From positions 1 to 55,790 of the forward strand of contig CANRQA010000003.1 in the NCBI GenBank assembly GCA_947632635.1: a DNA stretch of 55,790 nucleotides, read 5' to 3'. Below, piece by piece: positions 31,315-35,425 of the stretch (position 1 is its first letter; the number at the start of each line of letters is the position of its first letter). The notes beneath the pieces were generated by a model. That model had not been told where the DNA came from, ran no database searches, and worked only from the letters and a program-made list of their open reading frames with translations. This DNA comes from an uncultured Clostridia bacterium. GTDB taxonomy: Bacteria; Bacillota; Clostridia; TANB77; CAG-465. Both the position numbers and the translations under genes were made by a program.

Positions 31315-31968
31315 ATGTTTGGATTTAACGTCAAGGAAAATGTTCGGGAGGCAGTTTCAAAATTGGAAAAAAGCAATAATGAGCAAAAAGAAAGATTGAG
31401 ACAATTGAGACTTTTGATGAAAGGAAAAGATGTGACACCTTGCATTGTGCCAAAAGTGGTGATATCGTCGTTGCTATCGCGCGATGAAGTGTTAGCTCTC
31501 GCTGCAGAAGAGAAGAAGGAACTTACATCGGTGGAAATAAAAGAAAATCTTAAAAATGGCGTATATCTGCTGTATGAAGATGATATTATTTCTACACCGA
31601 TATATTATAAGCCGATATCTTATAAAAAGAAAGAAAAGTGGGTGCCGGCAGGCTTCGAAGTTGCATTTCCACATATTCAGTATATTATAAGAAATGGAGA
31701 TGAAAAAACCAAGAGATATATGATTTCAACTGTTGAGAATAACGATTTTGGTCATGTATTTGGCGGGACAATTGGAGGCCGGAAGGTTCTCATTTTCGCT
31801 GATGCAGGAGACTTTACCGGTACGGAAATGTCCCAAAAAGTTGAAATCTATACCAACGAAAAGGAGGAGAAAATATATGGCTCGGGTAACGGCCGGGTAT
31901 ATAAAAAGTGCACTCCCCTTACGGACGAATTTAGAGGTTGGTATCTGTTAGAGGATATCTGCTGCTAA
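31315..31968 (+). CDS. Small protein ending ...GWYLLEDICC (CC-tail paralog 1, 217 aa), unknown family
   Basis: ATG after GGGGAAAAAAC. The C-terminal ~50 aa are conserved with 35024..35425, and third-position synonymous differences support coding. Visibly GC-rich with rare codons, including three in-frame CGG (31345, 31780, 31894). Confidence 0.75.
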   Translation: MFGFNVKENVREAVSKLEKSNNEQKERLRQLRLLMKGKDVTPCIVPKVVISSLLSRDEVLALAAEEKKELTSVEIKENLKNGVYLLYEDDIISTPIYYKPISYKKKEKWVPAGFEVAFPHIQYIIRNGDEKTKRYMISTVENNDFGHVFGGTIGGRKVLIFADAGDFTGTEMSQKVEIYTNEKEEKIYGSGNGRVYKKCTPLTDEFRGWYLLEDICC

Positions 31969-31976
31969 AGAAAAAA

Positions 31977-32013
31977 AGGACTTGTAACTTTTAATTAAGT
32001 TGCAAGCCCTTTT
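31977..32013. terminator. Intrinsic terminator of CC cassette 1 (identical copy at 35434)
   Basis: GGACTTGTAACTT-ttaatt-AAGTTGCAAGCCC plus T-run, preceded by an A-run (bidirectional); its descending arm encodes the last codons of the LysR gene. Confidence 0.8.
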
Positions 32014-32909
32014 TCTTTATTTTCTGATATAAGTTCAATAAATTTACTTGACGCAAAATTTAATGTATTATTTTTTAAAGTAATTATTCCTAAATCTCTT
32101 GACGGAATTTTAGGTTTTACTTTAATTTCATATAATTCTTTACTTTTTAACTCATATTTTATAAACTCTTTTGTAACATATCCTATACCAAATCCTGCTT
32201 TTATAAAATCTACAACAAGATTGTAACTTACTATTTCTATATCAGGCTTAAAATTAATATTATTTTCTTTCATGTAATTATTTAAAAATGCACGAGTATT
32301 TGATGGCTCTTTTTGAGTAATAATATTGTATTTTAAAAGTTCTTCTAATGAGAGAACCTTTTTAGGATCTTTTAAATATTTTTCACTGCAAGCAAAAGAA
32401 TCATGTAATTTAGCACAAACTTTAATATTTAAATCAGAATGATCTTTCATAGGCAAATTTGTAACAAGAAAGTCAATATATCCATTTTTTAGCCCTTTAA
32501 TTAAATTAGTAGTAAGTTCATTTGTAATAGTAATATCAATATGTGGATATAACTTATGAAATTTTTCAAGATAGGGCATTAAAAAATGTTTTGAAACGGT
32601 TGCACTTGCACCAATATGAATTTTTCCCTCTTCTAAATGAATTAGTGAGTTAAATTTATTATTAGCATTTTTAATTTCTTCTAAAATATTTTTAACATAT
32701 TGGTAAAATACGTTTCCCTCTGCAGTAAGTATAACACCTTTTTTAGTTCTAATAAATAAACTACCACCAAGTGCATTTTCGAGTTGTTTTATTGATTTTG
32801 TAACAGCAGGTTGAGAAATATATAATTGTTCAGCAGCTTTAGTAATATTTTGTGCATTGGCTACAGCATAAAATACTTTATATAAATTTAAATCTATATC
32901 ATCATTCAT
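31995..32909 (-). CDS. LysR-family transcriptional regulator
   Basis: N-terminal HTH LYKVFYAVANAQNITKAAEQLYISQPAVTKSIKQLE, substrate-binding domain of typical length; start set at MNDDIDL. Confidence 0.9.
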   Translation of the reverse strand: MNDDIDLNLYKVFYAVANAQNITKAAEQLYISQPAVTKSIKQLENALGGSLFIRTKKGVILTAEGNVFYQYVKNILEEIKNANNKFNSLIHLEEGKIHIGASATVSKHFLMPYLEKFHKLYPHIDITITNELTTNLIKGLKNGYIDFLVTNLPMKDHSDLNIKVCAKLHDSFACSEKYLKDPKKVLSLEELLKYNIITQKEPSNTRAFLNNYMKENNINFKPDIEIVSYNLVVDFIKAGFGIGYVTKEFIKYELKSKELYEIKVKPKIPSRDLGIITLKNNTLNFASSKFIELISENKEKGLAT

Positions 32910-32961
32910 AACGATCACCATTAATATTATACATGTTGTTTTGATAAAATTCAAGTTTATC

Positions 32962-32976
32962 ATAACTAAAAGTTAT
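32962..32976. promoter_or_regulatory. Candidate LysR box (T-N11-A palindrome ATAAC-N5-GTTAT)
   Basis: Perfect inverted repeat in the divergent intergenic region between the LysR gene and the 33047 operon. Confidence 0.45.
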
Positions 32977-33046
32977 CATAATTATAAAATATATGTATTT
33001 GTGTTATATTAAAAAGATATGTATAATATTAGTGGAGGTGAAAAAA

Positions 33047-33920: not shown

Positions 33921-34685
33921 ATGAAAAATATCATTATTGATGCAGGTCCGACTAATGAAAGAATAGATGCTGTTATGAAAATTACAAATATGTCTACAGG
34001 GGCACTTGGGAGCATTGTTGCAGATACACTGCTTGATATGTATAACGAAGAAATTGGAACAATTTTTTATATTTCTTCTAAACTTTCATACAAACCAAAA
34101 ACAGTAAATGAAAAAATACAATTTATAACAATTGACTCTACTGATGATTTGATTAATGCATTAGAAAAAATTTTTAAAGAAAATAAAATAGATGCGATTG
34201 TTCATTCTTCAGCTGTCGGTGATTATAAAGGAAAATATGTTATTCGTGCAGAAGATTTAATTGAAGAAATTGTTGCAAGTGATTTTATAAATTTAGATAA
34301 AGATGAACAAAGAAAAAGACTTCTTGATATTTTTGAAAATCCAAGAACAATTTGCAATGATGATACAAAAATTTCATCTTATGAAAAAAATCTTATGGTA
34401 AAACTTGATCTTACGCCAAAGGTTATATCTAAAATTAAGGAATTTAGTGAAAATACAATGCTTATTGGGTTTAAACTTCTTGAGGGAGTTAGTGAAGAGG
34501 AACTATATGAGGTAGCACATAAACTTCTTATAAAGAATAATGCTCAATATATAGTAGCAAATCTTCTTAATAGAATAGGTAATGGTAAGCATTTTGCTAT
34601 GATTATTGATAAAGATGGAATTATAAAAAAATGTGAGACAAAAGCTGAAATTGCAAGTGCAATAGCAAATCTTATTTTTAAATAA
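33921..34685 (+). CDS. coaB: Stand-alone phosphopantothenate--cysteine ligase-like protein (CoaB / DFP C-terminal domain, streptococcal type)
   Basis: AGPTNERIDAVMKITNMSTGALG matches the CoaB G-x-T-x-E-x-ID-x-VR-x-ITN-x-S(S/T)G motif; HSSAVGDY; IGFKLL; no CoaC flavoprotein domain present. Confidence 0.65.
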   Translation: MKNIIIDAGPTNERIDAVMKITNMSTGALGSIVADTLLDMYNEEIGTIFYISSKLSYKPKTVNEKIQFITIDSTDDLINALEKIFKENKIDAIVHSSAVGDYKGKYVIRAEDLIEEIVASDFINLDKDEQRKRLLDIFENPRTICNDDTKISSYEKNLMVKLDLTPKVISKIKEFSENTMLIGFKLLEGVSEEELYEVAHKLLIKNNAQYIVANLLNRIGNGKHFAMIIDKDGIIKKCETKAEIASAIANLIFK

Positions 34686-34740
34686 GTAGAAAATAATAAC
34701 TGCAGTAGATTTATTGCAGTTATTATTTTTCCGTAACATT

Positions 34741-34815
34741 TTCAATAATATGTATTACAGCTTTTTTATTTGCAATTATTTCTTTGTTAAATACATCAAT
34801 ATTTGAAAGAGGGCT
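34741..34815 (-). pseudogene. Relic of an M14 peptidase gene 3' end (near-identical to 35484-35558)
   Basis: The minus strand translates to PLSNIDVFNKEIIANKKAVIHIIE, compared with the intact C-terminus PLSNIDTFNKEIIANKKAVIHTIENII. Confidence 0.65.
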
Positions 34816-34939
34816 GTAAAAAATGTTCAGTGATATGCTTAAAATATTAAATTAAGTTGTAATAAATGTTTAAAATATTTTTAGTTTTATCTGAATTATT
34901 TTAAAAAATATCACTCTTTTACAAAAATTTAATATATAC

Positions 34940-34968
34940 TTGACATAAAATTTAAAAAGTGATATAAT
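34940..34968 (+). promoter_or_regulatory. Consensus sigma-A promoter of CC-protein gene 2
   Basis: TTGACA-17 nt-TATAAT; differs from the 31232 copy at one spacer position. Confidence 0.7.
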
Positions 34969-35023
34969 AATATCGGGTTAGTTAAATAATTTCAAAAAAA
35001 TTTTTTAGAAAGGGTGTTTTTTT

Positions 35024-35425
35024 ATGCTGGACTTTACAACTGGAAAGGTAACTATTCCCAAAAATCGTGTACCGGAGTTTTTGGAAATGCTCGTAAATGG
35101 GGTTAAGGTTAATCCCGAAAGCCACAATGAGAGTTGTTCAGAGTTTTGTTTGAATGACAAAAAATATGGATTCCATATTAATGGTGGAGAAAAGGTCTCC
35201 TACGAAGGTAGGCTCAAAGCAACTCTTGAAGGGGGCAAAGAGGTAGAAGTCTATTTTGGAGCCAGTCAGCTTCTTGATACGGAAATGTCAAAAAGGGCTG
35301 AAAAATTCTCGAACGAAAAGGGCGAAACAATATATGTTTCGGATAACGGTAGGGCATATAGAAAGTGCACTCCCTTTACGGGTGAGTGGAGTGGCTGGTA
35401 TCTGTTAGACGATATCTGCTGCTAA
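35024..35425 (+). CDS. Small protein ending ...GWYLLDDICC (CC-tail paralog 2, 133 aa), unknown family
   Basis: Shares TEMS..E...NEK.E.IY.S.NGR.Y(K/R)KCTP(L/F)T.E..GWYLL.DICC with paralog 1; the N-terminal parts are unrelated; GC-richer than its flanks. Confidence 0.75.
   Translation: MLDFTTGKVTIPKNRVPEFLEMLVNGVKVNPESHNESCSEFCLNDKKYGFHINGGEKVSYEGRLKATLEGGKEVEVYFGASQLLDTEMSKRAEKFSNEKGETIYVSDNGRAYRKCTPFTGEWSGWYLLDDICC

Follow-up and report, generated by a model that had tools for sequence, protein, structure and literature searches.

Two orphan genes with a common C-terminal module

Two open reading frames (ORFs), named here ORF A and ORF B, lie on contig CANRQA010000003.1 of an uncultured Clostridia bacterium (GenBank assembly GCA_947632635.1; the whole stretch of 55,790 nucleotides [nt] is hereafter called the window), and they are probably two diverged copies of an acquired, lineage-restricted orphan gene carried in moron-like accessory cassettes, not substrates for C-terminal modification. 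An earlier note on this DNA had described both as protein-coding paralogs with unrelated N-terminal parts and a common C terminus ending in Cys-Cys (CC), and had likened that end to the substrates of C-terminal chemistry. We found both ORFs as described, and the common part amounts to a module of 64 amino acids (aa) in which 35 residues (55%) are identical (BLASTP, E = 2e-24); together with a ratio of nonsynonymous to synonymous substitution rates (dN/dS) of 0.32 over the module, this bears out that the genes are paralogous and protein coding. Both products end in GWYLL(E/D)DICC, followed by a TAA stop codon. The N-terminal parts showed no significant similarity, since their local alignment score was below the mean of 2,000 shuffles and 1,186 of these scored as well. 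Colinear matches placed by MAFFT in these parts are no evidence of homology because of that score.

By hydropathy, neither product has a signal peptide or a transmembrane segment; their isoelectric points are 7.6 (A) and 5.3 (B). No third copy was found in the window by tblastn, and no other ORF of the window, and none of 12 related loci, ends in CC. When the same sequences were scanned for GC-rich ORFs, only one further ORF was returned, a 92-aa ORF at a single related locus, with a G+C content of 0.362 and an ordinary G+C content at third codon positions (GC3) of 0.172. Two known motifs were considered for the module and rejected. The WG-containing beta repeat (PF14903) was suggested by the GWYLL motif, but hhalign gave a probability of 0.3% against the WG repeats of the ORF at 120-809, and neither protein has a Pfam match, to WG repeats or otherwise, even at E ≤ 10. 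The YxxxD/E motif of type VII export, present as YLLED and YLLDD, is too short to inform; no EssC-type gene occurs among the scanned ORFs (nearly all window ORFs of at least 90 aa, here and below), and the proteins are not helical hairpins.

When 5.8 billion proteins were searched with a word index, ORF A returned only its own copy and one further protein, P0002, and ORF B returned nothing. Profiles run exhaustively with HMMER against 1.84 billion cluster representatives returned P0002 and P0003 only. P0002 is the allele of ORF A in a sister strain (locus L001), with 211 codons and 79% amino acid identity, and P0003, from L014 (a further assembly of the same study), is ORF B cut short at 56 residues. 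An AAG-to-TAG change at codon 57 of ORF B (L014 positions 2474-2476, window positions 35192-35194) causes the truncation. It lies 12 nt short of the end of its contig, with coverage of about 4.8x, and is either an error of assembly or a null allele that exists in the population. No homolog was found in pattern-plus-tblastn scans of 185,579 GTDB species genomes, JGI metagenomes, and IMG/VR, or by tblastn against GenBank phages and PLSDB plasmids, and Pfam, NCBIfam, PHROGs, PADLOC, and the PDB sequences held no significant match for either ORF. The earlier note had not recognized the family, and its view holds: profile and library searches gave the sister-strain homolog only, with no match to a characterized family in the libraries searched. 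As judged from these searches, the A/B family is an extreme and apparently lineage-restricted orphan, and it would be an uncharacterized orphan family of a familiar kind, namely, a lineage-specific accessory gene cassette.

Foreign composition at a site that is empty in relatives

The window has an overall G+C content of 26.2%, versus 38.7% for ORF A and 41.8% for ORF B. Their GC3 values of 0.381 and 0.418 lie 6 to 7 standard deviations (SD) above those of the other window genes (53 ORFs; mean, 0.136; SD, 0.039; maximum, 0.278). Most of the codons listed as rare in the earlier note are enriched about 10- to 30-fold in the two genes, GGC only about 5-fold. These values and codon counts bear out its description of two G+C-richer genes with rare codon usage.

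The contig represents the core chromosome of a spore-forming, uncultured gut Clostridium, as it carries spoIVA, spoIVB, glmU, rmuC, ogt, ffh, trmD, and rplS. The nearest genomes, identified via the protein of the M14 zinc carboxypeptidase-family gene (M14) next to ORF B, are metagenome-assembled genomes of Clostridium sp., including CAG:465. Orthologs of M14 (46 to 71% identity) occur in 12 Clostridia genomes without the cassette. In four of these relatives, M14 is directly followed by rmuC and glmU, and the site between rmuC and M14 is therefore empty there; the window RmuC is 76% identical to the protein encoded directly after M14 in one of the four (Clostridium sp. CAG:465). In the sister strain, whose flanks are about 95% identical to those of the window, a single A-type cassette and nothing else lies between rmuC and M14. 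The window spacer holds, in order, a DUF4143/AAA_14 ATPase gene, cassette A, a trio of genes for a LysR regulator, a 285-aa protein, and a CoaB-like protein, and cassette B. Two further assemblies of the same study, L014 and L015, match the window at 99.9% identity, so this arrangement is not an assembly chimera, and a gene identical to ORF B was called in the independent assembly L015.

The foreign composition and the empty site in relatives together support horizontal acquisition. Import from a different genome, as the earlier note had proposed, is therefore likely, and the donor of the A/B cassette would have had a higher G+C content.

Each ORF lies in a duplicated promoter-to-terminator cassette

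Upstream of both ORFs, a consensus scan identified a 12-of-12 match to TTGACA-17-TATAAT with an extended −10 TG, and a purine-rich ribosome-binding site (RBS) lies 7 to 9 nt upstream of each ATG. Both ORFs are followed by a 10-bp hairpin and then a T-run, as detected in a terminator scan (Table 1). The perfect promoters reported in the earlier note were confirmed, but with three more in the same 11 kb (rmuC and dinD are each preceded by one), five in all, such promoters are not special here. Outside the hexamers, the two cassette promoters are similar only to one another; their blocks with the 5′ untranslated region (5′UTR), at 31223-31306 and 34931-35014, are 82% identical. The terminators are bidirectional, serving LysR as the convergent partner of copy A and M14 as that of copy B.

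Since the promoter blocks and the terminators (96% identical) are duplicated too, whole cassettes were copied and not the ORFs alone. Furthermore, copies of the M14 3′ end precede both cassettes, which suggests that the unit that multiplied included part of M14. This layout would fit segmental duplication in at least two rounds, or else integration events that recurred at the 3′ end of M14. The LysR gene ends in ...ENKEKGLAT, 4 to 5 residues beyond its orthologs (31995-32010), and the hairpin of the cassette A terminator supplies these added codons and the stop, which marks a recombination junction at the LysR 3′ end.

Table 1. Features of the rmuC-M14 spacer and its boundaries in the window
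Feature	Position	Strand	Remarks
ORF A	31315..31968	+	217 aa; soluble; Cys43, Cys199, Cys216, Cys217; GC3 0.38
ORF B	35024..35425	+	133 aa; soluble; Cys38, Cys42, Cys115, Cys132, Cys133; GC3 0.42
Shared 64-aa module, ORF A	31774..31965	+	About four short beta strands predicted, low confidence
Shared 64-aa module, ORF B	35231..35422	+	BLASTP alignment to ORF A module
Degraded copy of M14 3′ end, upstream of cassette A	31056..31097 (42 nt)		86% identical to 35520-35561
Cassette A promoter and 5′UTR block	31223..31306	+	Hexamers 31232-31260 (TTGACA-17-TATAAT with TG); RBS GAAAGGGG at 31300-31307
Terminator block A, bidirectional	31972..32020	+	Hairpin 31981-32006; 96% identical to 35428-35476; LysR stop codon inside hairpin
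Copy of M14 3′ end (87 nt), upstream of cassette B	34726..34812		91% identical to 35468-35554
Cassette B upstream region, promoter, and 5′UTR	34817..35014	+	Hexamers 34940-34968; RBS AAGGG at 35010-35014; 85% identical to L001 403-598
Terminator block B	35428..35476	+	Hairpin 35437-35462; common to ORF B and the convergent M14 gene
M14 zinc carboxypeptidase-family gene	35471..36619	-	Pfam PF00246; insertion-site boundary; lineage core gene
rmuC, split into two ORFs	28223..29507	-	Pfam RmuC; other insertion-site boundary
DUF4143/AAA_14 ATPase gene, another insert in the rmuC-M14 spacer	29673..30986	+	Pfam; PADLOC PDC-S01, E = 1.7e-60; absent from L001
LysR regulator (-), 285/303-aa conserved hypothetical protein (+), CoaB-like phosphopantothenate-cysteine ligase (+)	31995..34685		Pfam and NCBIfam matches

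Weak protein-level constraint and a conserved 3′ block

Only three alleles of the family are known (A, B, and P0002), and the reading frame stays open in all of them, at lengths of 133 to 217 aa. P0002 differs from ORF A by two indels, of 1 and 5 codons, both in frame. By the Nei-Gojobori method, the dN/dS value of 0.32 for the A/B module is significant (Fisher P = 9e-4), and a value of 0.51 was obtained for A versus the L001 allele (P = 0.03). The flanking M14 gene gave 0.35. Constraint on ORF A and ORF B is weaker than that on typical housekeeping genes.

The earlier note had placed the conservation at the protein level and not at the RNA level. The synonymous differences that it cited (TCC/TCA, GGC-CGG/GGT-AGG, and GGT/GGC) are present and the dN/dS of the module agrees with the claim, but for the terminal WYLL.DICC segment, conservation at the protein level is indistinguishable from conservation at the DNA level. 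Nucleotide identity between A and B is 66% (105/160) over the first aligned positions of the module versus 93% (77/83) over the last ones, and the latter block (window 31938-32020 and 35395-35476) comprises the last ~35 nt of the coding sequence (11 codons), the stop codon, and the noncoding terminator. A, B, and L001 have the same 32-nt hairpin core, GGACTTGTAACTTTTAATTAAGTTGCAAGCCC, in this block, a sequence that 12 related genomes lack. The block could reflect either gene conversion or constraint on a DNA or RNA element.

Two kinds of mobile element were also considered for the sequence pattern and rejected. For a diversity-generating retroelement, the A-B mismatches are of all types and not adenine specific, and the scanned window ORFs include no reverse transcriptase. 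For an integron attC-like hairpin, there is only a partial resemblance to core sites, and no integrase occurs among the scanned window ORFs.

Comparison with phage morons

Phage morons, known from the work of the Hendrix laboratory, are autonomous promoter-ORF-terminator units inserted between conserved genes. The cassettes are like them in that each consists of a single ORF with its own predicted promoter and terminator (consensus matches), differs from the host DNA in composition (GC3, 0.38 and 0.42 versus 0.136 ± 0.039), lies between genes that are directly adjacent in the four relatives mentioned above, and is dispensable and strain variable. Unlike morons, they reside in a core chromosomal region (glmU, rmuC, ogt, and ffh) and not in a prophage, with no PHROG match; they are tandemly amplified with fragments of a neighboring gene; and no phage homolog was found in PHROGs, IMG/VR, or the GenBank phages.

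Our best reading, as far as sequence comparison goes, is a moron-like accessory gene that would be evolving fast under weak purifying selection. We propose that a self-contained unit, composed of a strong sigma-70-type promoter, an RBS, an ORF, and a hairpin terminator that also serves the convergent neighbor, came from a donor of higher G+C content and landed in the M14-rmuC spacer of an uncultured gut Clostridium with 26% G+C. Segmental duplication would then have amplified the unit, which carried pieces of the M14 3′ end along. The products would be soluble cytosolic proteins, as predicted from hydropathy, with a shared beta-rich C-terminal domain of ~64 aa under moderate purifying selection and N-terminal parts that were replaced or have diverged beyond recognition. 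The C-terminal domain probably serves as a common functional or interaction module, and the N-terminal parts would give specificity. The cysteines would constitute at most a dispensable thiol or metal site.

The Cys-Cys ends

The comparison of C-terminal ends with substrates of Cys chemistry, made in the earlier note, was not borne out. P0002, the only nonidentical homolog, ends in ...WYLLEDVCR and not in CC, and it has KYTP in place of KCTP; two of the three module cysteines are thus absent. The scanned window ORFs include no radical SAM, YcaO, LanB/C/M, HFCD, PEARL, or prenyltransferase domain (Pfam). A conserved gene neighborhood was not found either: the sister-strain gene is flanked by rmuC and M14 only, and three inspected loci with the LysR/285-aa/CoaB-like trio lack a CC protein. 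Besides rmuC, M14 is the only neighbor kept in both strains, and it is a lineage-wide core gene that also occurs without the cassette. In addition, the last 83 nt of the two copies are 93% identical into the noncoding terminator, and the identical CC ends are therefore explained as well by gene conversion or by a 3′ nucleic acid constraint as they are by selection on the peptide. Since CC lies within this block, its presence in both copies need not reflect selection at the protein level. A literature search on C-terminal Cys-Cys motifs in bacteria gave nothing relevant. A role of the CC ends as handles for special chemistry is not supported by these data and, by the earlier note's own standards, is refuted as far as three alleles allow.

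We also compared the two proteins with systems known to use terminal or paired cysteines. In precursors of the EpiA/gallidermin type, the C-terminal Cys is converted to aminovinyl-cysteine (AviCys) by a LanD/HFCD flavoprotein. Like EpiA, ORF A and ORF B have Cys as the last encoded residue, and a DFP-family domain is encoded nearby. Unlike EpiA, they are proteins of 217 and 133 aa and not short leader-core peptides, their conserved part is C terminal, the nearby enzyme has only a CoaB ligase domain (PF04127) and no HFCD domain (PF02441), no LanB/C/M is encoded by the scanned window ORFs, and the terminal Cys is not invariant, given the ...EDVCR end of P0002 (a single allele). In PEARL and 3-thiaglutamate-type pathways, scaffold peptides are extended or modified at the C terminus and then clipped. 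ORF A and ORF B are similar in having a C-terminal Cys and an adjoining peptidase gene, but no LanB-like PEARL or tailoring enzyme is found in the scanned ORFs, the sister locus offers only rmuC and M14, and the peptidase next to the cassettes is the core gene that the lineage keeps in their absence. The C-terminal Cys-Cys of MerA and the Cys pairs of ArsD are vicinal-cysteine tails for metal handling. The A and B products likewise have a vicinal Cys-Cys, probably on the flexible C-terminal end of a cytosolic protein, but they show no sequence homology to these proteins and no mer or ars context, and CC is not kept in the sister allele. Geranylgeranylation of CC in Rab-type proteins belongs to a eukaryotic enzyme system. 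The -CC end is common to these motifs and the two ORFs, which differ from Rab in having no Ras/Rab domain match, no secretion signal (hydropathy), and no prenyltransferase in the scanned ORFs.

Weighing of alternative readings

If ORF A and ORF B encoded substrates or scaffolds for C-terminal Cys-Cys chemistry (AviCys-type decarboxylation and cyclization, lipidation, or modification followed by clipping), with M14 or the CoaB-like ligase as a possible partner, one could point to the CC end of both window copies, to a carboxypeptidase-family neighbor common with the sister strain, and to a cysteine-ligating enzyme encoded between the copies. We regard this as very unlikely, in view of the VCR end of P0002 and its loss of the internal Cys, the 12 relatives that have M14 and no cassette, the assignment of the CoaB-like gene to a widespread trio that is missing at the sister locus and comes without a CC protein at the three inspected loci, the lack of modifying-enzyme domains, and the position of CC inside a block conserved at the DNA level; moreover, proteins of 133 to 217 aa with a conserved C terminus and a variable N terminus invert the leader/core layout by which precursors of ribosomal peptides are built. 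More improbable still would be a variant in which CC and the internal KCTP Cys are a handle for an undescribed posttranslational step, for example, trimming or thiol chemistry via M14, and the VCR allele has decayed. A thiol- or metal-binding role, in which KC...CC together with an N-terminal Cys (A) or CxxxC (B) forms a Zn, Fe, soft-metal, or redox site, is improbable as well. It would account for the four Cys in ORF A and the five in ORF B, including CSEFC, and for the joint loss of two Cys from P0002 (C199Y and C217R). This co-loss is not statistically meaningful, as we estimate its chance at ~0.07 to 0.17 with ~17/64 module positions changed; P0002 keeps only two Cys in an intact ORF; no mer, ars, or metal homeostasis context adjoins the cassettes; and neither protein is homologous to any metal-binding family in the libraries searched.

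Two readings of a different kind concern conflict and nucleic acid structure. The proteins might be conflict-related accessory factors (anti-phage, abortive infection, or toxin/immunity) in a small defense-type variable island, with the C-terminal domain as effector or docking part and the N termini as specificity determinants. The strain-variable spacer with an adjoining ATPase gene that matches a PADLOC candidate, duplication with N-terminal replacement, relaxed dN/dS (0.3 to 0.5) and divergence above the flanks, foreign composition, and a strong, constitutive-looking promoter are in line with this possibility, but we consider it unlikely, since PADLOC, PHROGs, and Pfam hold no significant match to either protein, no partner gene is conserved with the cassettes, the sister strain has its cassette without the ATPase, and the support is circumstantial throughout. 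It is highly improbable that the conserved element is a structured RNA or DNA site (a GC-rich transcript, 3′ hairpins, or a recombination site) whose ORFs are incidental or dual in function. Structured RNAs typically stand out by their G+C enrichment when the genome is AT rich, the mRNAs of A and B fold with z scores of −3.6 and −3.2 against dinucleotide shuffles, compared with −2.3, −0.8, −1.6, and +0.1 for four control genes of the same contig, and the 3′ ends agree through the terminator with a hairpin core that is invariant in all alleles. Against it, Rfam at E ≤ 1 gave only weak terminator matches with no family reaching its gathering score, RNAalifold returned an unfavorable covariation term (+1.35) and many broken pairs, and the long ORFs are kept with their RBS, with in-frame indels and a dN/dS significantly below 1.

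Several observations weigh against the reading as moron-like accessory cassettes. Apart from the excess mRNA folding given above, divergence of the cassette outpaces that of its flanks, synonymous sites included (dS, 0.17 versus 0.065 for M14). The high GC3 of the cassette might have a cause other than foreign origin. L001, where a B-type upstream region precedes an A-type gene, keeps the order of duplications and insertions from being cleanly reconstructed. Nonconservation of CC rests on a single sequence, P0002, which could itself be decaying. AlphaFold2 models built with three-sequence alignments were unusable (predicted local distance difference test scores of 38 for A and 40 for B), their only consistent output being some four short beta strands within the common module, and neither homology nor structure sets a function for the proteins.

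The value of this analysis would lie mainly in exclusion, in that what looked like a new peptide modification system is probably an orphan accessory gene, extreme but otherwise ordinary, with a history of acquisition, duplication, and fast divergence. The cassettes would also provide a clean, small example of promoter-ORF units that enter core-gene spacers in uncultured gut Clostridia, and they appear to illustrate local spread together with fragments of a neighboring gene. The remaining interest concerns the 3′ block conserved at the DNA level, the excess mRNA structure, and the recurring footprint of neighboring 3′ ends.

Neighboring genes and other inserts in the contig

The LysR(-)/285-aa(+)/CoaB-like(+) trio between the cassettes is a conserved unit that many related Clostridia carry in varying contexts, with more than 100 protein clusters in relatives; the contexts of the three inspected loci are unrelated, and the trio is absent from the sister-strain locus. 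As judged from these comparisons, it is an independent unit, apparently not tied to the cassettes in function. The 285-aa protein has more than 130 homologous clusters and no Pfam family; PADLOC gave a weak match at most, to the nitrilase part of RT_UG5-nitrilase (E = 3e-5). Apart from the ligase domain, the CoaB-like protein matches only the coaB equivalogs. The trio may be a module related to coenzyme A or pantetheine. At the other boundary of the spacer, rmuC is frameshifted into two overlapping ORFs of 331 and 119 aa, compared with 408 aa in relatives, and is either a pseudogene or the product of a sequencing error.

An insert bracketed by copies of the neighbor's 3′ end occurs three times in the contig, at M14, ogt, and cutA1. 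At ogt, a 212-nt direct repeat (37013-37224 and 37623-37834; 98% identical), consisting of the ogt 3′ end and terminator, flanks a 398-nt insert. Within the insert lie a perfect TTGACA-17-TATAAT promoter and, on the minus strand, a membrane ORF of 99 aa (37223-37522) that has a raised GC3 (0.27) and no Pfam or NCBIfam match, an architecture that matches that of the CC cassettes. At the third site (region 50911-53029), a RhuM-family gene at 51431-52456 lies between two copies of cutA1 (300 nt) that are 93% identical. If this recurring footprint does reflect a specific insertion mechanism, it would be more interesting than the proteins themselves.

Another unit, at 11594-12170, has a perfect, TG-extended TTGACA-17-TATAAT promoter, a 150-aa ORF (11684-12136), and its own terminator. 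The encoded protein has an N-terminal hydrophobic segment and no Pfam match, and the GC3 of the ORF is raised (0.278); the unit may be another acquired moron-like cassette. Near the start of the window (120-2133), a WG-repeat protein is encoded by 102-nt tandem repeats (159-770), and a DDE transposase gene (973-2133) adjoins it.

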